Part shown: piece by piece, positions 2,476 to 30,855 of the stretch
Position numbering within the stretch: position 1 is the stretch's first letter
Layout of the letters: the number at the start of each line of letters is the position of its first letter
Virus record (IMG/VR): IMGVR_UViG_3300013794_000014
Location: 32,001 to 96,000 of that record
Source of the DNA: a virus
Length of the DNA: 64,000 bases
Reading direction: 5' to 3' (one strand)
Position numbers and translations under genes: made by a program
The notes under the pieces: model-generated
Told to the model about the DNA's origin: nothing
The model's database searches: none
What the model saw: only the letters and a program-made list of their open reading frames with translations

Positions 2476-2495
2476 ACAAATAGATAAGTGTAAAA

Positions 2496-3292: not shown

Positions 3293-3430
3293 ATGACATG
3301 GCACGTCAAGGATACATCAAAACGAATTGTGATACAACTAGAGGTCAAAATAAACGAAGCCACTAATCCAGCCGACGATGAAGTAATCGAATTTGGTGAA
3401 TGGACATTTACGTTATCAGAACTAACATAA
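3293..3430 (+). CDS. Small hypothetical protein (45 aa, MTWHVKDTSKRIV...)
   Basis: Not in the ORF track; AGGAGTGG SD, ATG 3293, TAA 3428-3430, fills the gap before the next gene. Confidence 0.6.
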   Translation: MTWHVKDTSKRIVIQLEVKINEATNPADDEVIEFGEWTFTLSELT

Positions 3431-3458
3431 CATAATATAACACAGAGGTGTTTTACAT

Positions 3459-3926
3459 ATGTCAAAGATTCGTACCTTATCTCAATCATATAATGAAAAA
3501 AAGTCAAATAAGAAGCGTTATATTCAATATCCAACAGCAATCAAAATATCTAACGGTAATGTCGTCATAATTGATAAAGTTGAATACTATAGAAAAACAC
3601 GTAAACTGATACTTTATTACATAGATGATACAGAAGAGTTATTGCATATTGTTGATCTACTACGTAAATACTACCAATATATGGAGATATACAAAAGCAC
3701 GCAAAACCAATCAGCATTAGTACAGGCGTCATCTATTTTGTTAAAACTAAACGAATTAGTTCCTAGCTTCGATATAGTTCAGTTGGAAACACATAGACAA
3801 ACAATAATAGATGAATATAAAGACGAAAATGACTTAGAACGTTTACATTTACAAACGCAACTGGATCCAATATTGATAAAAGCAATATTAGTTCTAGAAG
3901 ACAAAATCAAAATTAAAGTTGAATAA
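3459..3926 (+). CDS. Hypothetical protein
   Basis: 155 aa; GAGGTG SD. Confidence 0.7.
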   Translation: MSKIRTLSQSYNEKKSNKKRYIQYPTAIKISNGNVVIIDKVEYYRKTRKLILYYIDDTEELLHIVDLLRKYYQYMEIYKSTQNQSALVQASSILLKLNELVPSFDIVQLETHRQTIIDEYKDENDLERLHLQTQLDPILIKAILVLEDKIKIKVE

Positions 3927-3974
3927 CGGTAACTGTAACAGTAATAGTAACAGAAACAGTAATGGTGTCCATAT

Positions 3975-5204
3975 ATGCATATGCACACAAGCACATACAT
4001 GTATGTCGGAAAGGCCGACATTAAAATCATAAATACATCACAAACTAACTTTTACTCTTATCCAATACGGATTGAACTAAATGCCGATAACTTCCAATAT
4101 TGGGATTTTTTACAGGAAAACGGAATTGACATTTATTTTACATTGCCTGATGGTACTGAAATACCATTTTGGTGTGAATATTTTGATAAACAGAAGCAAT
4201 ACGCATTATTCTGGGTTAATATTCCTGCTATTCCTGCCGACTCTTTTATCTTTATCCATATGATTTTTGGTAACCCCAAAGAAACTGTTAATAAAAGTGA
4301 TGGTACTAAAGTATTTAAGTTTTTCAAGTTATCATCAAGTGTTGATCTCACAATACCAATATCAACATGTATGTCACAAACAAATGATAATGAACATGGG
4401 ACAAAAATCAGACTAGGATGTTCTTCAAATGATATACAAATTTTGTCAAACGAACAATGTATCATACATATGGAATCTGGTAAATTACTTGAAGTAAACA
4501 GTAATGTTTGTAAAATCGAAAATGAAAGCATTGACAAATTCAAAATTGAAATTGAAATTGGAACGACACCTGATAACATAACTAATACTAATACAAATAC
4601 AAATACAAATACTAATACTAATACTAATACTAACATTCATGTAAAAGGTAACGTTAAATACCTTTATATCAGGGAATTTATACCAGATGAGTCAATGATA
4701 AAAGTACATGTAGAAAACGCCAGTGTAAATGATCCACAGATGTATACTATACCACTTAAATCAACGTTAGTAGTTAAATCTGTTAAACAGTATATTGATA
4801 CGTTTAATATAGGTATAGATATAGAAGCACCTATTACAGAATTGAAGTTACAACGAAAACCAATAATACCTAAAGTTAGGGTATTTGTCAATAGTATAGA
4901 AATACCAGAAGATCAATTTACTGTCGATTACACAAACGGCATAATTCAATTTATAGAACCAATAGGACCAAAAGAAAAAGAACAAATGACAGATACTGTT
5001 ACAGTTACAGTAGTATACTATTACGGTTACTTTGATTTTTTAGAAGGCGTTAAAGTGACTGCATATTACAAAGATACTATCGTTGATCAAGCAATAACAG
5101 ATAAGTTTGGAAAATATCGTTTAATTGTGCCAAGGGGTTACGACATTCATGTAAAAGCAGATAGTGAACCATTATGTTCAATAACACGGTTTAGACTAGA
5201 TTAA
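3975..5204 (+). CDS. DUF2341-like domain virion/tail protein
   Basis: YPIRIEL...DIYFT..DGTEIPFWCE...LFWVNIP...FGNP pattern; TN repeat; Ig-like C-terminus. Confidence 0.7.
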   Translation: MHMHTSTYMYVGKADIKIINTSQTNFYSYPIRIELNADNFQYWDFLQENGIDIYFTLPDGTEIPFWCEYFDKQKQYALFWVNIPAIPADSFIFIHMIFGNPKETVNKSDGTKVFKFFKLSSSVDLTIPISTCMSQTNDNEHGTKIRLGCSSNDIQILSNEQCIIHMESGKLLEVNSNVCKIENESIDKFKIEIEIGTTPDNITNTNTNTNTNTNTNTNTNIHVKGNVKYLYIREFIPDESMIKVHVENASVNDPQMYTIPLKSTLVVKSVKQYIDTFNIGIDIEAPITELKLQRKPIIPKVRVFVNSIEIPEDQFTVDYTNGIIQFIEPIGPKEKEQMTDTVTVTVVYYYGYFDFLEGVKVTAYYKDTIVDQAITDKFGKYRLIVPRGYDIHVKADSEPLCSITRFRLD

Positions 5205-5214
5205 AGTGATAATT

Positions 5215-7143
5215 ATGCCAGTGATGTTATATCCATATTGGGTCGAACAGATAGATGAAGGCGGTAAAATAAACATTTGGACAAAAGTGACTGTACCGGC
5301 TAATAGTACATTATCACTTTACATAGTAAAAGGCAATTCTACAGAACCAGATGGCAACAATGTCTTTGTCTTTTTCGATGATTTTACCGGTACTAATACT
5401 AATACTAATACTAACAATGGACTTGATACTAATAAATGGACATTAGGTGGACATTCGTATGGAACGCCAAATTATACTGTTTCAGATTCATTGTTAAAAT
5501 TGTCATCTAATAGTGTTTGGTCTGTGATACATTCAACATTGACGTTTAGTTCCAATTTCATTGTCGAATGTAAAGCACGCCTTTTAGGAATTGAACAAAG
5601 TACACGTATAATTGGTATAATTGATAGCCAAACATTTGATTCATACAAGTTTTGTTTCAAAGAAGATGGATCACTGAATATTGGTAATTATATTCAAATG
5701 TGGTTTACTGATGGAACACAACATCATATAGATCCGACTTACTATGATGTCAAAAACGATTTCCATAAATACAGGATCATTAAAGGTGAAGATGCAGTTA
5801 TTGGACAAATACTTGACAAATATGAAAATGTAATTGTAGGACATAAGTATACTACAAATAATCCTAATTGGACAACTTTAAATTGGTATATTTATGCGTT
5901 AGTATACGATGACATTGGTATCGAATATGATTACATTTATATAAGGAAGTATACACAACATGAACCGTTTGTTATAACTTATCAGGTAAATAACGATGTA
6001 ATGTATGTTGCTATAACAAATCCAAATAACAATCAATTAACGGATTATCAAGTTGCAATACCTGGAAACGGTTTCATATCAACGCCCAATGAAAGTCTAT
6101 ACATTTTAGACGAAGATGGTTTACAAGCATCTGAATCGTTAGTTGGTGAAGACTTAACGAACTTAGTACAAGTAGATCCACAGATAACGTTTAAAAAGCG
6201 TGTGAAATTATATCTAACTAAGAATCTTCCTGAACAATCAACTGATGTTATTCTTCATATACCGCCACAGTTGAGTACATTCTGGGAGCATCGTGGAAAA
6301 AACTTAGTATTAACAGATAAAAATAACAATGTTTTAAGTTTTAAAATAACAAGTGAAAGCCTCAATGAATTATATGGTATTGTATATGGATTATCAAATT
6401 ATACAATTTACGATACTTTCTATCTTTATTTTGATGATGGTCTTGCTCGAAGTCAATATGGTTTAGTTCCAAAGGCAGAATGTCCATATGATGCTGAATA
6501 TAAGTTAGTACCACGTTTAGAAAGCACAGGAGTTATTTTGAAATTTCCGTTTATGCCGTCACATGAATTTGATCCTGACAATATTTGTATATTTGATAGT
6601 AGTCGTAAATTACGTTACTTATTTGATACATATAACAAGGAATTATTTGTCAAACTACCTTATTTGTTAACAAGTACTGGTTTAACACTGTATATTTATC
6701 CGAAAGATTTGCCTAACGATGATTTAGGGCCATTAGATACCGTAATTTATCCTTGTCAAGTAAAACAGTTACAAATTGAAACAAAACAAGATACATTTAT
6801 AGGTGATATTTTAGCTATAAATGGTATAGTTTACGTGACGTTACAAAAATGGGTTGAAGATAACCCAAAACTCGGAATATTTAGTATTGAAGAAGCACCA
6901 GACGTTATTTCACGCTACGGAAGTTTCGGGAAAATTTATAAGGCTATATTACATATTGCAAATTTATTGGAGTTGAAACGGCTAGAACGCGACTTACAGA
7001 ATGAAACTGTACAAGTTACATGGGACGACGAAAAATTCATTGCAGTTCCAACACAATATAGGAATCAAATGATATTAAGTGGAGATGACAAATATTATCT
7101 AGTGGAAATTGCATTACATAGGGTCAAAGATATTAGGATATAG
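5215..7143 (+). CDS. Multi-DUF2341 tail protein, possibly with a distal-tail-like C-terminus
   Basis: YPYWVE...IWTKV...VFVFFDDF, DYIYIRKY, LTDYQV motifs; lies directly upstream of a hub-like gene. Confidence 0.65.
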   Translation: MPVMLYPYWVEQIDEGGKINIWTKVTVPANSTLSLYIVKGNSTEPDGNNVFVFFDDFTGTNTNTNTNNGLDTNKWTLGGHSYGTPNYTVSDSLLKLSSNSVWSVIHSTLTFSSNFIVECKARLLGIEQSTRIIGIIDSQTFDSYKFCFKEDGSLNIGNYIQMWFTDGTQHHIDPTYYDVKNDFHKYRIIKGEDAVIGQILDKYENVIVGHKYTTNNPNWTTLNWYIYALVYDDIGIEYDYIYIRKYTQHEPFVITYQVNNDVMYVAITNPNNNQLTDYQVAIPGNGFISTPNESLYILDEDGLQASESLVGEDLTNLVQVDPQITFKKRVKLYLTKNLPEQSTDVILHIPPQLSTFWEHRGKNLVLTDKNNNVLSFKITSESLNELYGIVYGLSNYTIYDTFYLYFDDGLARSQYGLVPKAECPYDAEYKLVPRLESTGVILKFPFMPSHEFDPDNICIFDSSRKLRYLFDTYNKELFVKLPYLLTSTGLTLYIYPKDLPNDDLGPLDTVIYPCQVKQLQIETKQDTFIGDILAINGIVYVTLQKWVEDNPKLGIFSIEEAPDVISRYGSFGKIYKAILHIANLLELKRLERDLQNETVQVTWDDEKFIAVPTQYRNQMILSGDDKYYLVEIALHRVKDIRI

Positions 7144-7153
7144 GTGAAACGAA

Positions 7154-7801
7154 ATGTCTAAATGGTATATTTATTTGCCACAGTACAAGGAAAAAATAGA
7201 ACCTGATCATATTACAATGGATTTTCGAGTTAATGCTGTTTCTTCTGCGAATATAACTTTCAGTGAACATTTGATATTGTCGACGTGGTCATGGTTAAAA
7301 GATCATTTTTCCATTGGAGATCCTATACAGGTAAAATATGGAAAACAAATAATATTCAACGGATATGTAAATCAAGTAAGTTGGTCAAAGACGCAAACTT
7401 CATACAGGTTACAGGTAAACGCCTTAGATCCGTTGGGTAAGTTAGTGAATATGCCATTTAGAGGTGGTTTCACTGGTAGACTCAAAGACTTATTGAATAA
7501 CGAAATTTGTAAACCCATTAATATAAATAACCGTATATTGTCAGATTTAATAGTAAATTTACGTTACGATCAAGAAGTCTCAAGATTTGCATTACTAACA
7601 GATGCTTGTACTTATGCACGTGTTTTCACTGACTTAACCAGATTCGGATTCTATTACAACCATCAGTTGAACGCATTATGTGAGTTAAACGACAAGTCTT
7701 TACGTAAAATAGTACAATCAACATCACATACAAACCGCCTTTCAATTAATTTGACAGAAAGTTATATTGTTGCAAATGTGATACAAGTTACGAATTATTA
7801 A
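7154..7801 (+). CDS. Baseplate hub / tail-tip protein (N-terminal-like part)
   Basis: SSANITF...GDPIQV...IFNGYV...VNALDPLGKL pattern typical of phage hub (gpD/gp27-like) proteins. Confidence 0.6.
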   Translation: MSKWYIYLPQYKEKIEPDHITMDFRVNAVSSANITFSEHLILSTWSWLKDHFSIGDPIQVKYGKQIIFNGYVNQVSWSKTQTSYRLQVNALDPLGKLVNMPFRGGFTGRLKDLLNNEICKPININNRILSDLIVNLRYDQEVSRFALLTDACTYARVFTDLTRFGFYYNHQLNALCELNDKSLRKIVQSTSHTNRLSINLTESYIVANVIQVTNY

Positions 7802-7843
7802 TTAACTAACTAACTAGAGTTTTATATATTGGGCGTGATCAGT

Positions 7844-10069
7844 ATGCCAACGTGGCGAGTTTTACCGAAAACTAAAGTGCCGGTACCAGGCTGTCAATTC
7901 GAAGAGTTTTTCCTGTATACAACGTTACCGGATAAGTTTCCAGCTTCAGTTGATGATAGTAGCACTTTATATGATTTAGAACATTATTGTACTAGTAGTA
8001 ATCGTTTTAGAGCAATAGAAGAACCGGTTTACAAACGCTTTATACAGTGGTCTGATAATGTATATGCAGGACCATTGACATATAATCCTGAAACAGGAGA
8101 ATGGAGTTCAGATGTATCAGAAAAACATCCAATTACCGTTTACTATATTATCCGAGAAAATCAAGAGACGGTAAACAAAATACTTCGTTTTGAAGGTGCT
8201 GCTGCAGTTAGTTCTAAAATAGACAAGTACCTGATGTTTGTTTTTGTAAACACTGAAGATCTAAGAAACTATTTAAATGAGATAATACAGGCATATAACA
8301 ATTTACAAAATGCACGTAACAATGTCGTTCGTAATATTGTCGTCATATTGAAAGGAGTAGGGAAGTGGTTAGCTGAATTATTGGATTTAAGTGAAGAAGA
8401 TGGCATACCACCCAAAATACTATATGCATCTGCAAAATATACACCAACATATTTGAAAAATTACGTTTCTGAAAATTGGGATTTAATACCAGATATATGG
8501 AAAGATGATTTAGCATTTGCCAAGTCGTTACCTGACATTGGATCTGAGTACACGTTTGTTGTGGCACAATATTGTAAAATTGAAATAACCTTACGTGAAT
8601 TTACTGAGGATGATATTGACGACTATATAGATGAATCACAATATCCTGAGGTTACAAGAGTCTATATAGATGGATCAGAAGACAGTTACATTGAATACCG
8701 TCGATATGTTGCTGGTAAAGTAGTTGAATTTGGCAATATCAAATGTAACAGTTATGTGGAAGCAGAAATTGTACAACAGAAAGTGCGTGATACAGTAATA
8801 CAACTACGGGCAAAAGCAATAATAAAGTCACGATTTCGCTTCAGTTTGAACAGTGAAGTTGTATGTGACTTAGACGTATACACTACACCTGCGTTTGAAG
8901 TTACCGTTGAATTCCCTTACTGTAGTGCATTCTACTATGTGTGGTATGCTGCAGATGAAGATGCATCACAGTTACCAAGTGGGCCTGAATTTGATCTAGA
9001 TTTACCAGATGCTGACTTAGATTTCTCGATACCAGTATATACATGTTCTATTGAAGGAAAAACGTCTTATTCATGGCGATGTGATGAAAAAGCTGAATTT
9101 GAAGTCGTTGTCAAATATGGTGACGTCAAACTGAGTCCTAGTAGATATACAATTAAAAATGTGGAACTTCTAAATGAAAATGAAAATGAAAGTGAAAATA
9201 TCAGTTATACAATCAACCAATCGAAGTCTAAAATTATATTCGATATACCACATAAAGATACATCTGTTTCATTTAAAGTTAAAATAGTGATAAACAGTAG
9301 TGATAACAACGACATAGAACTTGAAGGATATGGTTATTTTTATGTTTCAGAGTGGTTAGATAGAATTTTGACATGTGAAGTGATTACTGATAAACAATAC
9401 TATGATTATGGATCTACAAATCCAGCTTCAGTACTAGTACGTGTACGAACAGTCAAAGGTCAACCAGTAACTGGACTTAAGATTTCTGATAACTGGAATT
9501 CTACATATATTGATAAAGGTGATGGACTTTACGAAGGTAACATAAATATATCGTCGTTGCCAGTAGGAACATACTCGGTTTATGTAAAAATAGATACAAA
9601 TAATCAATGTTACAAAAATAACCTTTCCGATGAAGAATATACTGAGATATTCTACTATAACCCAGTTACCTATGAAAATCAAGAATTTAAGTTAACTTAC
9701 CCACTAATAGAAAATTTAGAAGTTTACGTCAATGATAAAAAGACGTCCAAATATACTTTTTCCATTAACCAATATGGTGAGGGTATTCTCAAGATTACTC
9801 AGTCGCTTAACGAAAATGACGTTGTAAAGGTAAAGTACAAGGCGTATGCAACCTCTGTAAGTTTCAACATAGGGCGTTCAGAGCCTGTATCATGTACCCG
9901 TGTAGATGAAAAATCTATTACAAAATTTGGTAAAACTCAAATATTGAGAATTCGTATTCCATTTATAAGTAGTCCAGAAGAAGCATGTGAAATAGCTCAA
10001 ACATATTTAGAGTACTTTGCAAAACCATCAAAAATCATAATGACGAGTAACAAATGGGATGGTGATTAG
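7844..10069 (+). CDS. Large tail/baseplate protein with Ig-like domains
   Basis: C-terminal DEKSITKFG...IPFISSPEEACEIAQTYL resembles hub/tail-tip C-terminal segments. Confidence 0.55.
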   Translation: MPTWRVLPKTKVPVPGCQFEEFFLYTTLPDKFPASVDDSSTLYDLEHYCTSSNRFRAIEEPVYKRFIQWSDNVYAGPLTYNPETGEWSSDVSEKHPITVYYIIRENQETVNKILRFEGAAAVSSKIDKYLMFVFVNTEDLRNYLNEIIQAYNNLQNARNNVVRNIVVILKGVGKWLAELLDLSEEDGIPPKILYASAKYTPTYLKNYVSENWDLIPDIWKDDLAFAKSLPDIGSEYTFVVAQYCKIEITLREFTEDDIDDYIDESQYPEVTRVYIDGSEDSYIEYRRYVAGKVVEFGNIKCNSYVEAEIVQQKVRDTVIQLRAKAIIKSRFRFSLNSEVVCDLDVYTTPAFEVTVEFPYCSAFYYVWYAADEDASQLPSGPEFDLDLPDADLDFSIPVYTCSIEGKTSYSWRCDEKAEFEVVVKYGDVKLSPSRYTIKNVELLNENENESENISYTINQSKSKIIFDIPHKDTSVSFKVKIVINSSDNNDIELEGYGYFYVSEWLDRILTCEVITDKQYYDYGSTNPASVLVRVRTVKGQPVTGLKISDNWNSTYIDKGDGLYEGNINISSLPVGTYSVYVKIDTNNQCYKNNLSDEEYTEIFYYNPVTYENQEFKLTYPLIENLEVYVNDKKTSKYTFSINQYGEGILKITQSLNENDVVKVKYKAYATSVSFNIGRSEPVSCTRVDEKSITKFGKTQILRIRIPFISSPEEACEIAQTYLEYFAKPSKIIMTSNKWDGD

Positions 10070-10071
10070 AC

Positions 10072-10410
10072 ATGTTAGGTTTCTTTGTCACTGTCAATAG
10101 TCCAGTGAATCCGATTTTAGTTGCAACAATGCAATGTCGAAATATGCGTATCGAGGTTCAAAACCAGAAAGCTACAGTATTATATGAGCTGTATGATCCG
10201 AACCAACCTGTAGATCAATCTAATATCAGTATTATTTGGCCAACTAAACCAACTTATGAGTTTCAATATGGTAAACTAGATGATGAAATACAGAAATGGT
10301 TAGAGGACTTACGAAAACATCAATTATCTTCAACTACTATTAAAACACAAGTACGTGGTAAGATCAACTATATAACTGGTATACCCGTAGGTTTACCTGA
10401 TAACTGGTAA
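10072..10410 (+). CDS. Hypothetical protein (tail module)
   Basis: 112 aa; GGTGA SD; follows the tail gene directly. Confidence 0.6.
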   Translation: MLGFFVTVNSPVNPILVATMQCRNMRIEVQNQKATVLYELYDPNQPVDQSNISIIWPTKPTYEFQYGKLDDEIQKWLEDLRKHQLSSTTIKTQVRGKINYITGIPVGLPDNW

Positions 10411-10473
10411 CTGGTAGCTGGTAACTGGTAATTAGTAATTAGTAATTAGCAGTTGACAAATGGGGTGATAAAC

Positions 10474-11277
10474 ATGTTAGTATATACACCAATTCCACCA
10501 ATAAACTACATTGAAAAAGTAACAGAAAGAACAAAATCAATTTTTATGTTAGCACAATTATGGTCTATTGAAGAATATCGTAATGCAATTACTAATTCTA
10601 ATTTGAAACTAATTGTACTTGATAATGGTGCTTATGAAGGTGAACTAGTATCAGATAAACGTTTAATTGAAGTTATTGGACAAGTATCTGAGTTACACCC
10701 AAAAGCAAAGATTTATGCCATAATACCAGATGAAATGCAGAATCCAGAAATGACGTTAAAGAGAACTGAAAAGTTTTTACAGTACATAGAAAGTAACGAT
10801 ATAAAGTTACCAAAAAATGTTTCATTATTAGGTGTCATTCAGGTAGATCCAAATGTCAATGAAAAAACTGCAATAATACAAACGTTAGACTTTTCTGGTA
10901 AATTAATTGACTTAACACATGGTTATGGTGTTCATTTAGGCGGTTTTACAATACCAGTATGGTTCTACAGAAAATGGGGTTATCGTGATGTATTCGGTTT
11001 AACTTTACGTTTAGTTTACAATGATCATATGTATATTCACGCCTTGGGTTTAGACGACTTCAATGAACTTAGATACATACAATATGGTTTTGATTCGTTT
11101 GATACGTCTATGCCATTTACGTTAGCATACTACGGTTTACCAATTAAGGAAGTGCCGTTACTTGACAAAAGTACTAAACAACAGTTAGGCATTGATAGAG
11201 TGCCGCTAAAGCATCCAGTTCTCGAAAACTCTTTATACATGAAGAATCTAGAAGAAATATTGAAATTATGTAAGTAA
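10474..11277 (+). CDS. dpdA: DpdA-like / TGT-fold 7-deazaguanine DNA transglycosylase
   Basis: IVLDNGAYE, IIPDE, YIHALG and DSFDTS motifs of the TGT/DpdA TIM barrel; adjacent to folE2 and GAT-queC. Confidence 0.72.
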   Translation: MLVYTPIPPINYIEKVTERTKSIFMLAQLWSIEEYRNAITNSNLKLIVLDNGAYEGELVSDKRLIEVIGQVSELHPKAKIYAIIPDEMQNPEMTLKRTEKFLQYIESNDIKLPKNVSLLGVIQVDPNVNEKTAIIQTLDFSGKLIDLTHGYGVHLGGFTIPVWFYRKWGYRDVFGLTLRLVYNDHMYIHALGLDDFNELRYIQYGFDSFDTSMPFTLAYYGLPIKEVPLLDKSTKQQLGIDRVPLKHPVLENSLYMKNLEEILKLCK

Positions 11278-11302
11278 AGTAACATATATATGTGGTGATC
11301 AA

Positions 11303-12184
11303 ATGAAAGATGTACAAAATAGTCAACCAGAAATACAAATACAGTATGATATACCGCTAGTAGGTATTGAAGACTTGAAGACATATGTACCAATTCATTG
11401 GAAAGATAACAGTTACCATCTACTTTGTACATTTTCAGTATTTGTCAATTTACCCGCTAATCAAAAAGGAATACATATGTCAAGAATACCTGAATCAATC
11501 TATGATGTAGTAAGGAAAATCGTTGGTAAAGAACATACATCATTAGAAGACTTACTAGTACATATTAAGGACAAACTACTTGAAAAACACGATTATGCTA
11601 ATACAGTTCTAATTAGGGTTTCAACGTATTTACCAATTACAGTGAAGACACCAAGAACAAAAAAAGATTCACAAGAAATCATACCAATTGAGATGGTTCT
11701 AGAACATAAAGACAATGAAACCCTTAAAACCCTAATTGTATATGTACTAGGACAAACTGTATGTCCATGTGCTCAAGAACTAACCAAAGAAGAACTTGAT
11801 GTTGAGTTATCTCCAAGTCATAATCAAAGGGGACAAATGACTATTGAATTCAAATGTCCAATTGATTATAACATTACCTTTGAAGAACTCTATGATGTAG
11901 CATGTAAGTCAATGTCGGCGCCAACATATTCACTGTTGAAAAGGCCGGATGAACAATTTGTCGTATTACAATCACATAGTAGGCCAAGGTTCGTCGAAGA
12001 TTGTGTTAGATATGCTAAACACTATATTGAACAATTAATTAGTGAAAAAGGTAACAAAAACAAAGACAAAAACAATAAAAACGTTTCTTACAGAATTAAA
12101 CAAGTCAATTATGAGTCAATACATAAACATAATGCAGTTGCAATTATTGGTGATTTAAGGTTTGGTAATCTAGGACTTCGGTGA
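11303..12184 (+). CDS. folE2: GTP cyclohydrolase FolE2/MptA family
   Basis: KGIHMSR, TVCPC, SHNQRG, LLKRPDE, PRFVEDCVR and ESIHKHNA motifs. Confidence 0.93.
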   Translation: MKDVQNSQPEIQIQYDIPLVGIEDLKTYVPIHWKDNSYHLLCTFSVFVNLPANQKGIHMSRIPESIYDVVRKIVGKEHTSLEDLLVHIKDKLLEKHDYANTVLIRVSTYLPITVKTPRTKKDSQEIIPIEMVLEHKDNETLKTLIVYVLGQTVCPCAQELTKEELDVELSPSHNQRGQMTIEFKCPIDYNITFEELYDVACKSMSAPTYSLLKRPDEQFVVLQSHSRPRFVEDCVRYAKHYIEQLISEKGNKNKDKNNKNVSYRIKQVNYESIHKHNAVAIIGDLRFGNLGLR

Positions 12185-12226
12185 TCTAGGATTTTCGGTG
12201 ATCCAAGATTTTCGGTGATCCAAATG
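12149..12226 (+). repeat. Five degenerate 15-17-nt tandem copies of an SD-containing unit (GGTGATCyArGATTTTC)
   Basis: ggtgatttaaggttt / ggtaatctaggacttc / ggtgatctaggattttc / ggtgatccaagattttc / ggtgatccaaATG. Confidence 0.85.
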
Positions 12227-13141
12227 ACTTCCATTTCTGATTTAAACATTCTTTTTTGTTATAACCAAGAAAAATTAGGTGCAATAAAGCGTGCTCACTG
12301 TTTACAAGAACAATCTCCAAAAGAAGTTGAATTACATTCTGTTCCGGTACAAAAAGTACAAGATATAGACGATGACTTTACACATGTTATTCTTGATAAA
12401 ACTGTTGCTAACACGCCTATCGAGCAAAATTATGAACAGAAACTAGTATTAGCAAATTGCCATAGAGAGCAGTATCAAAACTTAAATGTCAATGAAATGT
12501 TAGTTTATGATTTCAAAATGCCTTATACAGTATGTCGCTACAATTTACAGTATCCATATGAACGACAATACACTTACATTGGACCGTTGGTCAAAAGAGT
12601 ACAAACTAAACCAATTGAAGATAGGGCTGAACGTTTATTTGTCACAAATGGACAACATTACATGTTTGAATTAGCAAAATTTATTGTAGAACATGTAAAC
12701 GACGTCAAATGGATTATAGCGACAAAAACGGAAAAGGAATACGAAATACTAAAAGATACAAATAACTATGGACATGAAGTAGTCTATACAAAAGAGTTAG
12801 AACCTCTACTTGAACGTGCCAAATACGTTGTACATTATGGTTCACATCAGTTGGCGTTAGAATGCATTAGTACAGATCAAGTGCAATTAATTATACCGCC
12901 ACCACATTCAAGGTACTATTATCAACATGCATTCCGTATTAGGGAATTTTTAATTGGTTCATTTGTTTTTGATTTGTTTCATAGGGTACCAATTGAACGT
13001 AAATACCGCATAATAAGAAGAATTCGTTGTAATTATAAGTCATATAGAAGCAATTTACAGAACTATCGTGAAAAGGTAGAAAATAGTAAGGTGGTTACAT
13101 GTACACTGCCCACACTCTTTATACAGAACTCAAAGACTTAA
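12224..13141 (+). CDS. GT-B fold glycosyltransferase-like protein (GT28/GT1 C-terminal-like)
   Basis: YIGPLV...LEPLLERAKYVVHYGSHQLALECISTDQVQLIIP matches the nucleotide-sugar-binding segment of GT-B enzymes. Confidence 0.55.
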   Translation: MTSISDLNILFCYNQEKLGAIKRAHCLQEQSPKEVELHSVPVQKVQDIDDDFTHVILDKTVANTPIEQNYEQKLVLANCHREQYQNLNVNEMLVYDFKMPYTVCRYNLQYPYERQYTYIGPLVKRVQTKPIEDRAERLFVTNGQHYMFELAKFIVEHVNDVKWIIATKTEKEYEILKDTNNYGHEVVYTKELEPLLERAKYVVHYGSHQLALECISTDQVQLIIPPPHSRYYYQHAFRIREFLIGSFVFDLFHRVPIERKYRIIRRIRCNYKSYRSNLQNYREKVENSKVVTCTLPTLFIQNSKT

Positions 13142-13758
13142 AAAACGTTGTCTTAATAGTTTTTGACAATAATGTTGCTCATTTTTACGTTGGTATTAAA
13201 AGTGGATCTAAACTAATGAATGACAAAAACGTTAAAGGTAGAATTTACCTCAGTAATAGTTTAAATGCAACTTTTTGTATCACAGAATTCGATGATTTCT
13301 TAAAATACTTGAAGAACGTTAACGAACCTATCTTTTTTGACAAAGAAAATTTGGTTGTAACTACTCCTAATCGTGAGTTTGAATTTGTTGTCGATGAATT
13401 ACCACCGAAAGAACATTGGCCTACCTTTCCATATATCCAGAAACCAGAGACAATGTATAAAAACCTAAATTTGAAAATTGAGGTTCCTTATGACATAATG
13501 CGGTTTGAAGAAGAAGGAACATTTGTAGTATCATTAATGGGCCATAAAAAACGTATTAATAAAAACAAACATAAATTGTACACAGAAGTGAAGCGTGAAA
13601 CATTAGATAGATTACCACGATTTACATACGATTACTCATTGACGTTAGATTACCTTTATTTGCAATACAAAGAACCGTTAACTGGAAAAGCAAAAATAGA
13701 ATTCTATTTGACAAATGACTTAATGGTAACAGATGACGACATATTCGAGGTGATCTAA
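13099..13758 (+). CDS. Hypothetical protein, possible divergent sliding clamp (PCNA-like)
   Basis: 219 aa, beta-rich; C-terminal LYLQYKEPLTGKAKIEFYL resembles the PCNA C-terminal strand. Weak. Confidence 0.35.
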   Translation: MYTAHTLYTELKDLKNVVLIVFDNNVAHFYVGIKSGSKLMNDKNVKGRIYLSNSLNATFCITEFDDFLKYLKNVNEPIFFDKENLVVTTPNREFEFVVDELPPKEHWPTFPYIQKPETMYKNLNLKIEVPYDIMRFEEEGTFVVSLMGHKKRINKNKHKLYTEVKRETLDRLPRFTYDYSLTLDYLYLQYKEPLTGKAKIEFYLTNDLMVTDDDIFEVI

Positions 13759-14340
13759 ATGGAGTTAATAATAGACTTAAAACGGAAGACATATACTGGT
13801 GACGTCATTGAACCATTATGGGCTTATCAGCAATATGGTATTCAAAGTGACAGTATAGTGGTATTCAGAGGTCCTATGCAAGTAGAATTATCCGACATGA
13901 AAGATTTAGCCGACATTAAAGAAGCAAAACCAATTTATGCTAATGACGCCATTAATTTTATCATAGAGCATTTTGATTATCCAGATATCAGAATTACTTA
14001 TTTGAGACAAAGGTTACTTGTAATGATAGCAAAAGAAGTTCTAGAAGAGTATTCGGGCAAAAGGTTAACAAGAAATGGTGATGACTTATATTACAATAAC
14101 GGTAAACTTTCTGTATCTATTGCGACTAGTAGCATAACATCAGGAAAAATTCACTTGGGTATAAATATCACTAATGAAGGTACGCCTAAGGGTGTAAAAA
14201 CCGCCGCATTAAGTGATTTAGGACTAGTTAACGATGATCAAATTGAAATGATCATGGAAATGATTGGTAAACGGTATAAAACTGAAGTTGAAAAAATTGA
14301 GCAAGACATTAGGAAAACATTGCCGTTACTATCGAGGTGA
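13759..14340 (+). CDS. DUF366 family protein (biotin/lipoate-ligase-like fold)
   Basis: YTG..IEPLWAY, DSIVVFRGPM, FIIEHFD, YLRQRLL, RNGDDLY..GKLSVSIA, KIHLGIN. Confidence 0.85.
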   Translation: MELIIDLKRKTYTGDVIEPLWAYQQYGIQSDSIVVFRGPMQVELSDMKDLADIKEAKPIYANDAINFIIEHFDYPDIRITYLRQRLLVMIAKEVLEEYSGKRLTRNGDDLYYNNGKLSVSIATSSITSGKIHLGINITNEGTPKGVKTAALSDLGLVNDDQIEMIMEMIGKRYKTEVEKIEQDIRKTLPLLSR

Positions 14341-14344
14341 AATA

Positions 14345-15730
14345 ATGTGTGGAATAGGTTTCTATGGTCCAATATTAAACTCAGAAAGAGATAAACTACT
14401 TATTATGGAGTTATTGAAGACGTTGACAAAAAGAGGAAAAGATGGTTATGGTTTCATAGTAATCAGTGAAGATGGTAAGTATATGTTGTATCGCCATCAT
14501 AGTTTAGATCAAGTACTTATGCAATTACATTACACTGAGTTAAGAAAAGGAGATATTGTATTGGTACATAGTAGGGCAAGACCAATAAGTGAACTAATTC
14601 ATGAGGAAGAAAAAGAAAAGGACATTGAACTTTTACAACCTATTGTAAAACATAAAATTGCAGTTGTCTTTAACGGCATAATCGAAAATGATGAAGAGTT
14701 TAGGGAAAATGAAGAAAAATGGGTTGATACGTTTGCCATTTGTAAATACCATTCATTGCCCACATATAAGGACAAAGTTTTAAAAGGCAGTTATTCGTAC
14801 ATTTACGTTGATTTAGATGAACCACAAAAGATACACGCAATTAAAGGAAACCAACCATTATATGCTTACGAAAACGTGTATACTGGACAAATGATACTGT
14901 CGTCTGAACCGATAAAATTTGAAAACTTTTACAGTGTAAAGTTTCCAGTTGCTACAGAAATGGCTTTGACATTTAAAGTACAACAGTACATATTCGGACT
15001 ATTGACGACGTATAAATGTGAATATGAAATGACACCAATAAAAATCCATAATTCAGTGAATACACCAGATCCTGATAAATCAAAAGCGGTTGTCTTATGT
15101 TCTGGTGGACTTGATTCTTGTGTAGTCGCCTACGAAATGGCCAAACAATGTAATCACATCATTTTATTGAATTTTGACTATGGACAACCTGCCAGAAAAC
15201 AAGAATGGAATGCTACATTGAAACTATACGAATACCTACAGAAACAGTTTCCAGAGAAAACGTTCGAAGTTGTTCAATTGAAATTAGACGTGTTAAGTAC
15301 ATTGGCATCAAAGTCAACTGTTTTCAATGAACCTCCTGAAGGTACAAACGCCTTAGAAACCCTTTCAAGATGGATACCCGCAAGAAACTTAGTGTTCCTT
15401 TCATTGGCAGTTAGTTATGCAGAATATTGTGGTGCTGGAAAAATCGCCTATGGTGGAAACCTCGAAGAAGCATGTGTCTTTCCAGATAATACAACAGAAG
15501 CAATTGAAAAGTTCAATGAAGCAGTACAATGGTTTATTGCAAAACCAAAGATACAAATTATATGTCCAACCGCTTATGATATGAAAGTGGATATTGTCAG
15601 AAAAGCAATCGAGTATGGCGTCTATGATATTTCTTGGAGTTGTGATAGAGATGGTGAAACAGAATGTGGGCAATGTGAAGGATGTCTACTGAAACGTAAA
15701 GCACATAGACTTGTCACGTATCACATGTAA
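14345..15730 (+). CDS. queC: GAT-QueC fusion (class II glutamine amidotransferase + 7-cyano-7-deazaguanine synthase)
   Basis: SD GAGGTGA then MCGI (Ntn Cys), RGKDGYG, HSRA, FNGII; SGGLDS PP-loop, FDYGQ, IPARN, FPDN, SWSC...CGQCEGC. Confidence 0.92.
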   Translation: MCGIGFYGPILNSERDKLLIMELLKTLTKRGKDGYGFIVISEDGKYMLYRHHSLDQVLMQLHYTELRKGDIVLVHSRARPISELIHEEEKEKDIELLQPIVKHKIAVVFNGIIENDEEFRENEEKWVDTFAICKYHSLPTYKDKVLKGSYSYIYVDLDEPQKIHAIKGNQPLYAYENVYTGQMILSSEPIKFENFYSVKFPVATEMALTFKVQQYIFGLLTTYKCEYEMTPIKIHNSVNTPDPDKSKAVVLCSGGLDSCVVAYEMAKQCNHIILLNFDYGQPARKQEWNATLKLYEYLQKQFPEKTFEVVQLKLDVLSTLASKSTVFNEPPEGTNALETLSRWIPARNLVFLSLAVSYAEYCGAGKIAYGGNLEEACVFPDNTTEAIEKFNEAVQWFIAKPKIQIICPTAYDMKVDIVRKAIEYGVYDISWSCDRDGETECGQCEGCLLKRKAHRLVTYHM

Positions 15731-16092
15731 TCTTTGTAAACTTTAACTTCAGTTGGTTCAGTTACCTCTATTTCAACTTTTACATAAGGTGCTAAAGTCA
15801 ATACGATGTCGGATTTTTGAACTCTTGTACTATAATGATTGTCAAAAGTAATAACTGTGGTTGGTTCAGTATCATCTGCACTTCCGTCATTGGTTAAGGC
15901 CTGATAGCATTTGACGTAAACTTTCGTATTCGGGTTTCCTTTAGGTAATTGCACGACTAAATATATTGCTTCTGATATAGCGTTAATATAGAATGTTTTT
16001 GTATGTTCAACAATATCATGAAAGACAACTTCTGGTTTTTTACGTGTAGTTGAATATATCCAATGTCCTTTGAAACTCCTAATGAAAGGCAT
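15721..16092 (-). CDS. Hypothetical beta-rich protein
   Basis: 123 aa; AGGTGA SD on the minus strand. Confidence 0.7.
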   Translation of the reverse strand: MPFIRSFKGHWIYSTTRKKPEVVFHDIVEHTKTFYINAISEAIYLVVQLPKGNPNTKVYVKCYQALTNDGSADDTEPTTVITFDNHYSTRVQKSDIVLTLAPYVKVEIEVTEPTEVKVYKDYM

Positions 16093-16183
16093 TGTATCAC
16101 CTATCCTGTCACTTATAATGACATATACGTTAAATCAATTAAATTAAATTTAGAATTGAAGAAGGTAATATAAAGGTGTCAAT

Positions 16184-16396
16184 ATGTATAGGGTGCTGAT
16201 TGTTGGTTCAGAACCAATCAGAGTCAGAATTGATACAGAAGAACAATATTTTGAAATACAGTATAGCGATGTATTTGGTCCTATTAGATTTACATATGAT
16301 GATCCCTATGACATTATAAAAGTAATTGAACAATATACTTCTTTGAGTCAAGAAGATATACAAAGAATACTTGGTGTCTGTTACTATGGATGGTAA
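16184..16396 (+). CDS. Small acidic hypothetical protein
   Basis: 70 aa; AGGTG SD; overlaps the hslU start. Confidence 0.7.
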   Translation: MYRVLIVGSEPIRVRIDTEEQYFEIQYSDVFGPIRFTYDDPYDIIKVIEQYTSLSQEDIQRILGVCYYGW

Positions 16397-17684
16397 GAAC
16401 AAACTTCAGAAAATACAAGACTATTTACGACAGTATATCAAAGGACAAGAGCATGTCATTAAGTTAATTTCTATCTTACTGATTAACAGAGATCGAATTG
16501 AACGTATCAAATCTAAATTTAATTTTGAATCCGATACTAATATCAATGACAATGACAATGATATAGAATATCCCAAAGATGAGTTAGTGCCTCCTAACAT
16601 TATGTTAATTGGGCCGTCTGGATGTGGTAAAACCGAATTAACTAAACGTATTGCAGAAATTAGTGGGCGGTTTTGGTTCAGGATACCATGTACTGTATTG
16701 TCTGCAACTGGATATGTTGGTAAAGACGTAAACGACATATTGAAATATGCAATTGAATCAGCTATACAGAAAATACAAGAACAAAAACGTAAGGAGATAA
16801 TTGAACGGCAACTAGATAAACTATTATTGCGTGCTACTAAACCGCCACTAGTTACTGATACATATGTAAATAGTATTAAGAAATATGTTGAAGTTTATCG
16901 TAAGAATCCAGAACATCCACTGTTAGAAGAATTGTTAGTAGCAACGGTACCTGAACCGCATTACATGTTTAATCAAAAAGGTGAGAAATATACTGCAGGT
17001 ATTTTCTATCAAGAAGTCCGGGATACTGTAAAATCTATAATTGAAAAGTTAATTGAGGGTGAGTTAGCGAAACAACAGGAAAAAATACAAATGGAAGCAA
17101 TTAAACAAGTTGAAAACGGCATAATTATGCTTGATGAAATCGACAAGATTGTTGGAGGACGTCTCGATAACGTTTCAATGTATGGTGTTCAAAGAGAACT
17201 TCTTGCATTAGTTGAAGGATCCACATTTCATACACAATATGGTCCGATTAACACGAAAAACATATTGTTTATTTCAGCAGGAGCATTTCAAGTTGTATCA
17301 CCAGATGAAATGTTACCAGAACTGAGAGGTCGTTTTCCAATACGAATAAAACTTAAACCACTAATGAAAAAAGATTTCGTTGAAATTCTGAAACATTCAA
17401 GACTATCACCATTGAAAAAGTTCCAAACCATAATGAAAGCAGATGGAATTAACGTTACTTTTACAGACGACGCAATTGAGTATCTTGCTGAATATGCTGA
17501 AATGTTAAATCAGAAAGAAGAACAAATTGGTGCAAGACGTCTATGGGAATTATTTGATAAACACCTTATTGACTTGTATTTACTAGAAAAAGATACTGTA
17601 ATCACGAAGGAAATGTTACAAGAATTATTGCCAAGACATAGTAGAAGAAAACAAAAAAGATTTCCATATGAGATGTATATATAG
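16386..17684 (+). CDS. hslU: HslU/ClpY-type AAA+ unfoldase
   Basis: PNIMLIGPSGCGKTE, GYVG pore loop, GIIMLDEIDKI, GVQRELLALVEG, ILFISAGAF, PELRGRFPIR, IGARRL; I-domain-like insert. Confidence 0.92.
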   Translation: MDGKNKLQKIQDYLRQYIKGQEHVIKLISILLINRDRIERIKSKFNFESDTNINDNDNDIEYPKDELVPPNIMLIGPSGCGKTELTKRIAEISGRFWFRIPCTVLSATGYVGKDVNDILKYAIESAIQKIQEQKRKEIIERQLDKLLLRATKPPLVTDTYVNSIKKYVEVYRKNPEHPLLEELLVATVPEPHYMFNQKGEKYTAGIFYQEVRDTVKSIIEKLIEGELAKQQEKIQMEAIKQVENGIIMLDEIDKIVGGRLDNVSMYGVQRELLALVEGSTFHTQYGPINTKNILFISAGAFQVVSPDEMLPELRGRFPIRIKLKPLMKKDFVEILKHSRLSPLKKFQTIMKADGINVTFTDDAIEYLAEYAEMLNQKEEQIGARRLWELFDKHLIDLYLLEKDTVITKEMLQELLPRHSRRKQKRFPYEMYI

Positions 17685-17735
17685 ATGTTCTGATAGATGA
17701 TGAATATAATGTAATAAACAGTTATCGGTGACAAA

Positions 17736-18671
17736 ATGCATGGTAAAATACATCCACATTGGTTTTTACCAATGAATTATTTTCCATGTCAATATTACAT
17801 CAGAGCATATAGTGCTAATTTCACAGAAAATTGGTTTGTAAAATATGAAACAGAATCAAGTACAGTTGTTGACGATGATGGTAACGAAATACCAATGGTA
17901 GTTCCTGTAGAACCTGATAAATATCATAATATTAACAGTAACGAATTAATTGCACTACAGTTCAATGCAAAAACCAAACAGTTTAAATTGATAGAAAAAG
18001 TATATACAACTAACAATTCTAGTAACGAAAATGAATTCATTTATCATCGTGAAAATATTATTAAATGTTATTACCCAGAAGATTTTACAGAGGTAAAAAA
18101 AGTGAAACCAGGACAATATATTGACGGCAGTAATATTGGTGATTTGATTTACGTTGCAACCACGGATGATGGTGCTGCTTGGACTAGTAATTTCTACTAT
18201 GGTACAAAAGAATATATTGGCCGCAGATTCAGACATTATGTAGATGTTAACAAAACTGTAATAACCGGATATGATGCTGAAGGTAGACCAATAACTACAA
18301 CGGTTCGGATTACATATACAAAACCATTTATTGTGTATTTGGATCCACATAAGTTTGCTGAAGAACATTTAGACTTAACAAATCAAGACTATGATTTTGC
18401 TTTAGTTAAATACACTGAGTGGAGTTCATGGCCAAATGCTAAACACCCCGTTTCTGGTAGACATAAAGCTATAATTTCAAAAAGAAACTACTATCCATAT
18501 GGTTGGTTTGAACCTTATCGTGAATACTGGACTCTTTTAAAACGTAAACCAAAAGAAGATAATGAAGATGGTTATGAGCGTATTTGTATGATGGCAAGAA
18601 CAGGGAAAGACACATCATATGGACTTGCTATCAGTGAAATTATCTATTACAAGTTAAATACAAATGAATAG
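17736..18671 (+). CDS. Hypothetical virion-associated protein
   Basis: 311 aa, aromatic and beta-rich; shares DFA(L/V)V and G(L/F)AI C-terminal motifs with the next ORF. Confidence 0.6.
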   Translation: MHGKIHPHWFLPMNYFPCQYYIRAYSANFTENWFVKYETESSTVVDDDGNEIPMVVPVEPDKYHNINSNELIALQFNAKTKQFKLIEKVYTTNNSSNENEFIYHRENIIKCYYPEDFTEVKKVKPGQYIDGSNIGDLIYVATTDDGAAWTSNFYYGTKEYIGRRFRHYVDVNKTVITGYDAEGRPITTTVRITYTKPFIVYLDPHKFAEEHLDLTNQDYDFALVKYTEWSSWPNAKHPVSGRHKAIISKRNYYPYGWFEPYREYWTLLKRKPKEDNEDGYERICMMARTGKDTSYGLAISEIIYYKLNTNE

Positions 18672-18682
18672 GTGATCAAATT

Positions 18683-19492
18683 ATGTTTCTGCATTTACCT
18701 GAAAGAGTTTTTTTTGAAACTGAAATGAAACGTAAGGCATTACAACAGAACGCATACAATTTTGGTTGGACTTGGTATTATACAATTGAATCACAAGATC
18801 ATACGTTACAAGTACATTATACAGGTAATGCGATAACCAGTACAAATTACATAATGTTACAACCAACCAGATTCGATAACAGGTTTGTTAACCTTAACAT
18901 AAAGATTCTAAATGAACCTATATATGACCCAACCGATACACACGTTGTATATAGTTATACACATAAACTTGAGTTAATTTTTGAACAACAGTGTACACAT
19001 GTATATACGTATTATCCACATCCATCACATTTTTGGTATAAAAGGTTTAATTGGAGTGCAGACCATAAAGATGAGTTATGGGTTGATAACGACAAGTTCA
19101 AGTTGAAAATCTTTCCAATGTTAGATAAGTATCCTGGTACAGATGTGCAGCATAACGAATGGAGTGGTTTTTTGGGTATAGGAATGGTTGCTGGAGGTGC
19201 ACCAGCTGTGATACAAATTCCAATGGAAAATTTCATTCTTGATGAGGATGGAAATCCAATGGGCGAATGGGATTTTGCTGTTGTGCGCGGACATTGGCTT
19301 GGTGGCGAAACTATGTTATCATACGGTTCTAGAGATGACATTAAACCTGTATCAATGACTATACCTAAGCGTGAATTTGAAGTTGTTGTTAAACCAGGAG
19401 AATCATTATGGTACAGTAGTTTATCTGGTGGAAGTAGAGGTTTTGCAATAACTTACATTCAGTTTTATCGGTACAATCAAATTCCTGGTTAA
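18683..19492 (+). CDS. Hypothetical virion-associated protein
   Basis: 269 aa; GGTGA SD; apparent paralogue of 17736..18671. Confidence 0.6.
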   Translation: MFLHLPERVFFETEMKRKALQQNAYNFGWTWYYTIESQDHTLQVHYTGNAITSTNYIMLQPTRFDNRFVNLNIKILNEPIYDPTDTHVVYSYTHKLELIFEQQCTHVYTYYPHPSHFWYKRFNWSADHKDELWVDNDKFKLKIFPMLDKYPGTDVQHNEWSGFLGIGMVAGGAPAVIQIPMENFILDEDGNPMGEWDFAVVRGHWLGGETMLSYGSRDDIKPVSMTIPKREFEVVVKPGESLWYSSLSGGSRGFAITYIQFYRYNQIPG

Positions 19493-19503
19493 AGGTGTCA
19501 ACA

Positions 19504-20094
19504 ATGTTATTACGCCTCTTACCTAACGAATATTTTAGTTTAGTGTTTCCAAAAGAACTTGATGAAAATACTAGTCAGTTGGGAAAGTTACAGTTAATAC
19601 GTTATAATAGACAACAAGAACAAGGACAAGAACATGAACAAAAACAAAATCAAGAACAGTATAAATATTATTTCATTAATGAAAGTTATGATAATTTCAC
19701 TGTTAAATTTGTGTTCAATGATGATTCAGTTCTGTATGTACCTGTAGAAGTCTTTTCAAACAGGCATTGGGTAGTTTGTTCACCTTTTGAAGTCCATGTA
19801 CACTCTTTACATGAAAATCCTTCTTTTGGTTTTACACATCATTTAGATGGTCTTTATTGTCATTATAGTACACGTGATTATTTGGTTTTTGAGAACTTAA
19901 ACGTTTATACATATAGATATACGTTTTATGGTGAAGATTGTGTTATAGAACATGTAGACCTGTACAATAACAGTATGTTTATCACAGATCTTACTGACCA
20001 AACTGAAAAGACTTCAATAATTATGAAACCCACTGAAAAGATCATTGTTGTTGTACAAGGAGACTTGTACTTTAAGTCAATGAAATGTTGGTGA
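19504..20094 (+). CDS. Hypothetical protein
   Basis: AGGTG SD; QE-rich repeat insert. Confidence 0.6.
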   Translation: MLLRLLPNEYFSLVFPKELDENTSQLGKLQLIRYNRQQEQGQEHEQKQNQEQYKYYFINESYDNFTVKFVFNDDSVLYVPVEVFSNRHWVVCSPFEVHVHSLHENPSFGFTHHLDGLYCHYSTRDYLVFENLNVYTYRYTFYGEDCVIEHVDLYNNSMFITDLTDQTEKTSIIMKPTEKIIVVVQGDLYFKSMKCW

Positions 20095-29608: not shown

Positions 29609-30844
29609 ATGCCTATTATTGTCAATGGCAAAAAGACAAATGAAATACATTTCAAATATGGTGCATATGTAGACTACAATGAACCAGTTCCTACATTGAA
29701 GTATGGTAATAGGCCTGGTACAGTTGTTATACGTAAAGGTAAACCAAAAGACTACATTGAATTTGATAGTAATAATGGTGGTTATTGGAAGTACTATTTC
29801 AGTATACCTGTATTTGGTACAGATTATCTCAATGAACCAGTTCAATACAAAATTGAGTTTACAGAAAGTTCAGTTAATGTGTGGTCAAATGATTTGCAAA
29901 GCATACTAGCTACACGTTCTATAGTGAACTTCTGGGATGAAGCAACTAAAGCAAATATCAGAGTTTTCGATGAAAATTACCAACAGAAGTACTTCTGGAT
30001 TGAAAAGTTTGATCCAGTCAACAAACATGCTATAATTTGGGTTTCAATTGAACCAGGACAAAAAGAAGTAAACATTGCATATGGAAATGACAGTTGCTTT
30101 GAAAGTGGATATAATGTTCCAAGTAAATGTTTTAGGAGAGTAATTGATGGGCTAGTCGGATGTTGGCATTTTGATGAAGGACAAGATAATACTGTCTATG
30201 ATTCATCTGGCTATAATAGACATGGAACTATTAATAATGTTACTTGGACTGATGCTGGATACTATGGTAAAGCGTTATACTTCAACGATGGTGAGGTTGT
30301 AATTGAAAACTCAGAAAATATGGATGGATATGAACAATTAACAGTTATTTCTCGTATATATCCTACACAAAGTTCATCGCAAGCTATTGTATTTAACAAA
30401 GAAGTGTGTTATGAGTTGGCATTGATAAATTTGAATATATGTTGGGCAGTATGTAATAGTATATTTTGGGAGTGGATATCAACTGGATATACTGTAAAAC
30501 TTAATAAATGGTATTTTATTGCATGGGTTTATGAAAGTGCAAATTCAATAAAGACATATGTTGGTGATGAAAATAGTAATATGTCATTACATACTGGTTC
30601 TTATGGTAGTGGAAACATATCAACGTCGAATCGTAAACTTAAAATTGGAAATCGGTATATTGCTAATTGTCCATTTAAAGGTATCATAGACGAAGTTATG
30701 ATCTTCAATAAAGCATTAACTAATGAAGAAATTCAAGACTTATACAATAATCATGGAATAGGAGGACATGATGGTAAATGTTACGTAAGAAAAATTATTG
30801 AACAAGATCTCCAATTCGGAACCATTTCCATTAATGAATTCTAA
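29609..30844 (+). CDS. DUF2341 + LamG (concanavalin A-like) receptor-binding protein
   Basis: YFWIEKFD...IIWV...IAYGN then GLVGCWHFDEG...WYFIA...FKGIIDEVMIFNKAL. Confidence 0.75.
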   Translation: MPIIVNGKKTNEIHFKYGAYVDYNEPVPTLKYGNRPGTVVIRKGKPKDYIEFDSNNGGYWKYYFSIPVFGTDYLNEPVQYKIEFTESSVNVWSNDLQSILATRSIVNFWDEATKANIRVFDENYQQKYFWIEKFDPVNKHAIIWVSIEPGQKEVNIAYGNDSCFESGYNVPSKCFRRVIDGLVGCWHFDEGQDNTVYDSSGYNRHGTINNVTWTDAGYYGKALYFNDGEVVIENSENMDGYEQLTVISRIYPTQSSSQAIVFNKEVCYELALINLNICWAVCNSIFWEWISTGYTVKLNKWYFIAWVYESANSIKTYVGDENSNMSLHTGSYGSGNISTSNRKLKIGNRYIANCPFKGIIDEVMIFNKALTNEEIQDLYNNHGIGGHDGKCYVRKIIEQDLQFGTISINEF

Positions 30845-30855
30845 AGGTGTCTACT

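Follow-up and report, generated by a model that had tools for sequence, protein, structure and literature searches.

HslUV and the proteasome are considered to be two separate systems that run in parallel. In archaea three AAA families, PAN, CDC48 and AMA, end in a hydrophobic residue, a tyrosine and a last residue of any kind (HbYX), and all of them bind and activate the 20S proteasome (PMC3493965). Tail peptides of seven residues suffice for this activation, and AAA proteins without HbYX are inactive (PMC3493965), while cellular HslU is stated to be without the motif (PMC11475706). The subject here is the gene for an HslU-derived AAA+ unfoldase (P0001; positions 16386..17684, + strand, 432 aa) in a stretch of viral DNA of 64,000 nucleotides, termed the window, which comprises bases 32001-96000 of the 141,059-bp IMG/VR record IMGVR_UViG_3300013794_000014. 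Its product is HslU by descent, yet it falls short of a functional HslU in two features, the docking tail and the HslV partner, and it ends in HbYX. The reading favored below, at a probability of roughly 55% and from comparison of sequences, is that an HslU of bacterial origin was given a new tail with which it docks, as a cap supplied by the virus, on the 20S proteasome of the host.

Comparison with known systems

Bacterial HslU/ClpY (TIGR00390; PDB entries 1G3I, 1E94, 5JI3 and 6PXK) is 30-37% identical to the viral protein over about 90% of the length, and the two have in common a fold with an insertion in the large subdomain, Walker A and B motifs, the GYVG loop, an arginine finger and sensor 2. 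The viral protein differs in having an acidic insert of roughly 20 residues near its N-terminus (residues 40-62), an I domain that is shorter than, and not alignable with, the bacterial I domains, and a longer, disordered tail with [M/L]-Y-x instead of [YF]IL. There is also no HslV alongside it, either in the virus or in the inferred host lineage. The likeness to PAN of the Methanococcales (TIGR01242), the inferred host order, is of another kind. PAN, an AAA+ unfoldase that forms hexamers, likewise has HbYX at the end of a flexible tail, and the ends are nearly equal, with ...HVMYA, ...NVMYG and ...EVLYR in PAN as against ...HVMYR, ...YELYR and ...YEMYI in the viral proteins. PAN is, however, a classical AAA protein with a coiled-coil/OB N-domain, whereas the viral protein is of the HslU/ClpX type with an I domain, and the two belong to unrelated AAA+ clades. 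Archaeal CDC48 and AMA provide a precedent for the HbYX tail as a portable 20S-capping module (Forouzan et al. 2012, PMC3493965), but they are cellular classical AAA proteins and the present one is virus-encoded and HslU-derived. By analogy, it would stand beside PAN, CDC48 and AMA among the proteasomal ATPases with HbYX tails in proposed function, but not in kinship.

Viral HslU homologs without an adjacent HslV have counterparts in jumbo phages, as with gp116 of Erwinia phage RAY and hslU of Klebsiella phage phiKp_32. These orphans are just 25-35% identical to the protein described here, and they end in ...TLVNN (RAY) and ...LLESV (phiKp_32), neither of which is an HslV-docking or an HbYX end. 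Their hosts are bacteria without 20S, and both proteins probably function with no peptidase. The literature searched contains no account of an HslU ending in HbYX or of a proteasome cap encoded by an archaeal virus.

An HslU homolog with intact motor motifs

The reading frame is open from the ATG at 16386 to the TAG stop at 17682-17684, and its closing codons, gag atg tat ata tag, read just as given in the preliminary description of this DNA. Against solved structures phmmer matches the protein to HslU at E 1e-57 and to ClpX at just 1e-22. The top NCBIfam model is TIGR00390 (hslU), with 240.4 bits that fall short of the equivalog cut-off of 362.45 bits, and HslU is the best match by both sequence and fold. 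The PAN family model TIGR01242 gives 20.3 bits against a cut-off of 500, so the protein is not PAN/Rpt by sequence. An AlphaFold2 (AF2) model made with an alignment of 50 homologs has a predicted local distance difference test score (pLDDT) of 86.6 and a predicted template modeling (TM) score, pTM, of 0.81. It has the HslU fold, with large and small AAA+ subdomains and an I-domain insertion, and at least the leading 48 of its Foldseek matches belong to HslU/ClpY (TM scores 0.6-0.8, E as low as 5e-30).

The Walker A motif, the GYVG pore loop, the DE of Walker B, the arginine of RGRFP and the GARRL sensor are invariant in 50 aligned HslU sequences, and the coordinates that follow are all on the + strand. 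Walker A (the P-loop), GPSGCGKT at residues 76-83 (16611..16634), has G76, P77, G79, G81, K82 and T83 invariant. The pore-1 loop GYVG at residues 109-112 (16710..16721) aligns with the HslU pore loop, with G109, Y110 and G112 invariant, and in Walker B, IIMLDE at residues 246-251 (17121..17138), it is D250 and E251 that do not vary. Between the pore loop and Walker B is the I-domain-like insertion, at approximately residues 117-243 (16734..17114), which is confidently modeled as long helices with a beta hairpin at 183-214 and is constrained inside the viral clade. The protein is an HslU homolog with every catalytic and pore motif intact, and the complete HslU motif set of the preliminary description belongs to a real open reading frame (ORF). 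Because the ATPase, pore and sensor motifs are invariant across the 50 sequences, the motor is expected to be active.

A PAN-like tail in place of the HslV-docking end

The C-terminal tail, predicted to be flexible, consists of the 14 terminal residues, 419-432 (17640..17681), in which a basic linker is followed by P-Y-E-M-Y-I. AF2 models this part as disordered, with pLDDT below 50, and such disorder would agree with a docking role since tails of that kind are expected to be flexible. The sequence ends ...KRFPYEMYI, with the terminal HbYX tripeptide M-Y-I (atg tat ata) at 17673..17681 and then tag; the HslV-docking end, ...[YF]-[ILV]-[LI], is not present. The extended basic C-terminus noted earlier is there, both in the basic linker and in a C-terminus that reaches 3-12 residues beyond that of bacterial HslU.

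Eight further distinct relatives, 62-99% identical, are present in a database of 5.8 billion proteins, and beyond this viral clade identity falls to about 35% (bacterial HslU). All eight end in [M/L]-Y-[I/R/C]. With the present protein included, the endings of the clade are PYEMYI (two sequences), PQIMYI, PYELYR, SYMYI, PHVMYR, SHIMYC, PYNMYI and PIEMYI. Tyr431 is invariant, the residue at -3 is M or L and the final residue is I, R or C, while the 15-25 residues that precede the HbYX end vary in sequence and in length. Conservation of the terminal motif, which the preliminary description had proposed as a check, extends to every viral homolog, and the pattern, with a hydrophobic residue and tyrosine constrained and the last residue free, matches the definition of HbYX.

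Among the HslU family examined the HbYX end is specific to the viral clade. Of 111 bacterial HslU homologs 108 end in [YF]IL, in keeping with the ...R(F/Y)IL that had been given earlier as the usual HslU tail, and none has a penultimate tyrosine. When 1.84 billion representatives were searched exhaustively with a profile, the whole viral clade fell into one cluster at 50% identity, and a penultimate tyrosine is found in 0 of the 149 next-nearest HslU-family representatives (50% clustering). No such tyrosine is present, then, in any of about 260 other HslU-family proteins, most of which end aromatic-aliphatic-aliphatic, typically [YF]IL. The caveat that M-Y-I might be a truncated YIL is ruled out, as the last residue varies and the residue before the tyrosine is always M or L, as against R, Q or K in bacteria.

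The best match outside the clade, P0244, was set aside, being an ordinary enterobacterial-type HslU that adjoins HslV and has a score inflated by internal duplication. When IMG/VR was scanned with the clade profile, the sole match was an unrelated ClpX-like gene ending ...NLKEAS. A quick tree places the viral HslU clade on a long separate stem outside all the bacterial HslU sampled, and from this tree no donor lineage can be named.

A complete viral genome without a cognate peptidase

The 141,059-bp record, whose completeness is rated at 100%, carries direct terminal repeats of 92 bp. Throughout it there is no match to the proteasome/HslV family PF00227 at E<=1, and none to the HslV model TIGR03692 or the ClpP model PF00574 at E<=10. 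What had been reported for the window, that no HslV is in view, extends in this way to the whole genome.

The host lineage is most likely Methanococcales, as gene similarity and ribosome-binding sites suggest, and the probable hosts are heat-loving methanogens. The best host marker found is a tyrosyl-tRNA synthetase gene upstream of the window (genome 6775-7701), an auxiliary gene that is unusual in archaeal viruses. The enzyme is of archaeal type (NF006330, E 9e-113), and its identity is 60-65% to the counterparts in Methanothermococcus okinawensis, Methanothermococcus spp. and Methanocaldococcus spp. and about 50% to those in Methanobacteriaceae. The viral thymidylate synthase is of the methanogen type (TIGR03283 at 1e-50), and the DUF366 gene just upstream of the HslU-like gene has 65-70% DNA identity in many of 40 Methanococcales genomes. 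With window 1-20000 as query, some DNA match occurs in 34 of these 40. GGTGAT(C), which fits the 3′ end of archaeal 16S rRNA, is the dominant motif 5-10 nt ahead of start codons (for example at window 13740-13758, 18665-18682 and 35845-35863). A match of at least 4 bases resembling the complement of the anti-Shine-Dalgarno sequence precedes about 73% of viral ORFs as against 38% for random positions, and the extended archaeal-style Shine-Dalgarno of this virus is useful for its gene calling. The genome has a GC content of 32%, and its ribonucleotide reductase is of the anaerobic kind, NrdD. The synthetase, the thymidylate synthase, DUF366 and the GGTGAT(C) sites point to Methanococcales for the archaeal host of the preliminary description. 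A crAss-like phage of Bacteroidota, considered for the giant RNA polymerase-like ORF and the low GC, was rejected on account of the strong GGTGAT(C) sites and the Methanococcales-like genes, and also of the structural genes tested, which matched almost no PHROG.

Host proteolysis and the tails of PAN

Each of the 40 Methanococcales genomes has PAN. HslV over cut-off is found in none of them, and the viral HslU profile recovers no HslU from the 40, its top match being one generic AAA protein at 42 bits. The five genomes checked for proteasome genes each have one alpha and one beta gene, and the gate and pocket residues Y9, D10, P18, G20 and K67 are invariant in the Methanococcales alpha subunits compared. 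The inferred host lineage offers a 20S target with a conserved pocket and gate, yet no HslUV.

The C-termini of PAN were read in 30 of the genomes. In 19 the end is ...P-x-H-L-x-V-L-Y-R, in 9 it is ...L-N-V-M-Y-G or similar, and the remaining 2 have ...L-H-V-M-Y-A. The likeness of virus and host reaches beyond the tripeptide, with viral H-V-M-Y-R set against H-V-M-Y-A of host PAN. In a metagenome-assembled genome of Methanothermococcus okinawensis the CDC48 homolog ends ...SDKNT, without HbYX, and PAN is apparently the sole HbYX-tailed AAA protein there among those read.

Proposed function and its alternatives

That the HslU-like protein caps the host 20S is suggested by its homology, its intact motifs, the absence of a cognate peptidase from virus and host lineage, the conservation of the tail and the likeness of that tail to PAN, all of which are observed. 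From these we infer 20S binding, gate opening, translocation and the degradation of substrates. An active hexameric AAA+ unfoldase of bacterial HslU descent would have been captured by large tailed viruses of Methanococcales, and its HslV-docking ...S-R-[Y/F]-I-L exchanged for a flexible tail of greater length that finishes in P-x-x-[M/L]-Y-x, an HbYX like that of host PAN. In the ATP state the tails would enter the pockets between host 20S alpha subunits and so open the gate, and the GYVG pore loops would thread unfolded substrates into the 20S core. Substrates may be picked by the clade-specific I domain, possibly together with a 70-aa protein whose coding sequence is coupled to that of the unfoldase (see below), and candidate targets are host defense or regulatory proteins, or viral proteins that need timed removal. 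For the broader proposition, that large archaeal viruses turned an acquired bacterial HslU into a host-20S cap by mimicry of the PAN tail, the odds are about even.

In HslUV structures the HslU C-termini are on the peptidase-facing side and the I domains opposite. Because of this placement a re-tailed HslU would, by analogy, be correctly oriented on 20S. The difference between hexamer and heptamer symmetry, which had been raised as a caveat, is moot since PAN, a hexamer too, docks on a ring of seven. In archaea it is the HbYX tail that controls how hexameric AAA ATPases dock on the alpha heptamer. As for the hijack of the host 20S put forward in the preliminary description, it withstands two of the three refuting conditions named there, since hslV is absent from the complete genome and HbYX is conserved, and the archaeal host now has data behind it; 20S binding, defense factors as substrates and an adaptor role for the 70-aa ORF are putative parts of that proposal. 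A complex prediction for viral residues 322-432 and a pair of alpha subunits from Methanothermococcus sp. Ax23 was graded as weak support, with an ipSAE score of 0.43 and a best control of 0.09. The mark used for such predictions was passed by 58 of 80 solved complexes and by 2 of 110 mismatched pairs, and scores of 0.60 or less include just 7 of the 80 solved complexes and both of the passing mismatches. At least 90% of contacts are shared between runs and partner pLDDT is at least 73; the result is counted neither for nor against.

Several points weigh against a 20S cap. HslU belongs to another AAA+ clade than PAN, CDC48 and AMA, and we know of no HslU-20S pairing. The clade is small, with eight distinct sequences in one cluster at 50% identity, so that conservation spans limited divergence. 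The host is assigned from gene similarity, and comparison of window 1-20000 with the 40 Methanococcales genomes, a search of 20 kb, gave only gene-level similarity and neither a CRISPR nor a provirus link; there are a few near-matches of 29-31 nt, and the two that were fetched are not inside repeat arrays. An Hb-Y-x end is present in 4 of 139 ORFs of the viral genome, with 2.15% expected from composition, and because about 2% of its ORFs carry one by chance a lone HbYX end is not significant; the signal is the clade-wide conservation. Reported frequencies of such ends are about 0.7% for proteins of bacteria and 1.9% for those of viruses (PMC11475706), and many proteins that do not bind the proteasome also end in HbYX (PMC3493965).

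The serious rival among the explanations considered, although itself rather doubtful, is a stand-alone unfoldase or chaperone that remodels complexes or assists virion assembly in the heat with no peptidase, the tail serving the hexamer interface or a viral partner. Bacterial HslU alone has chaperone activity, and the orphan HslU-like genes of jumbo bacteriophages, with no docking tail, indicate that a viral HslU can work peptidase-free. Furthermore, an HbYX end does not prove proteasome binding (PMC3493965). Such a chaperone leaves unexplained, however, the PAN-type [M/L]-Y-x at the extreme C-terminus of all members, behind a variable disordered linker, and no other HslU relative carries that end. 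The same likeness to PAN tails means that the viral tails would contest the same pockets, and with the ring-to-ring fit of an HslU body on 20S being unproven, the protein might instead be a competitor or decoy at the alpha ring, displacing PAN and blocking or reprogramming host proteolysis rather than feeding it substrates. This is unlikely, given that the pore loop, Walker B, arginine finger and sensor, all needless in a passive plug, have been kept under constraint.

Most viral ORFs are without a family, and a divergent partner could hide among them, perhaps a divergent Ntn-hydrolase ring or a prohead protease elsewhere in the genome on which the unfoldase docks. The proteasome/HslV and ClpP profiles are nevertheless empty even at the permissive thresholds given above (E<=1 to 10), the neighbors of the HslU-like gene are not conserved peptidase-like proteins and the tail mimics that of host PAN, all of which makes a hidden viral peptidase more unlikely still. 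Least probable by far is a bacteriophage with an ordinary HslU that uses the HslV of its host. HslU is otherwise bacterial (and organellar), and the nearest cellular homologs of the viral protein are all bacterial, but the several Methanococcales-like archaeal genes, the GGTGAT(C) ribosome-binding sites and the missing HslV-docking [YF]IL tail speak against it.

If the viral HslU does cap the host 20S, archaeal viruses would have their first virus-encoded proteasomal ATPase and, with it, a first sign that they seize host proteolysis with a motor of their own, and HslU and 20S would for the first time be seen joined in a natural hybrid machine. The docking tail alone would then decide which self-compartmentalizing protease an AAA+ motor drives, and would be an exchangeable adaptor between the HslUV and proteasome systems. 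The well-studied M. jannaschii-type 20S would also gain an orthogonal unfoldase that is compact and probably thermostable. The proposal is specific, and is one that would surprise AAA+ protease specialists.

The coupled 70-aa ORF

An acidic ORF of 70 aa (16184..16396, + strand) is translationally coupled to the HslU-like gene, whose start it overlaps by 11 nt, and three related contigs keep it in that place, where it again runs into the start of HslU. Its product is modeled by AF2 (pLDDT 92) as a small domain of four strands and two helices. The sequence has no Pfam or PHROG match, and the model has no Foldseek match at E<=0.001. The best VIA-align Z, 5.2, is to a designed protein and the atlas score is 0.75, neither of which is informative.

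Other features of the viral genome

The virus is tailed, with terminase, tail tube and minor tail protein encoded, and it is very distant from known phages. At 141 kb it joins the very few viruses known for Methanococcales. The structural block opens with one ORF of 6956 aa on the - strand, which occupies window 56859-64000 and continues to genome 109729. At least six large ORFs, at window 3975-7143 and 29609-35833, have DUF2341 and/or LamG-like (Laminin_G_3) domains; they are on the + strand, apart from the main structural block, and may be a diversified family of adhesins or receptor-binding proteins. Directly upstream of the HslU-like gene, at window 10453-15730, is a 7-deazaguanine DNA-modification cluster with folE2 (PF02649), the DUF366 gene (E 8e-71) and a glutamine-amidotransferase-QueC fusion, with QueD and a radical-SAM gene elsewhere in the viral genome, away from the cluster.

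NrdD (E 7e-116) is in the window (48124-49947 and 52717-56848), and the pooled Pfam tally of window ORFs includes a family B DNA polymerase, dUTPase/dCTP deaminase-like genes, an ERCC4 nuclease and a DHH phosphoesterase. Outside the window there are, besides the thymidylate synthase gene, host-like metabolic genes for a type I 3-dehydroquinate dehydratase, a V4R-domain protein, a guanylate kinase and an ATP-dependent DNA ligase, as well as one tRNA-Arg(GCG) (genome 28358-28435) and a DUF2201 VWA/metallopeptidase pair.

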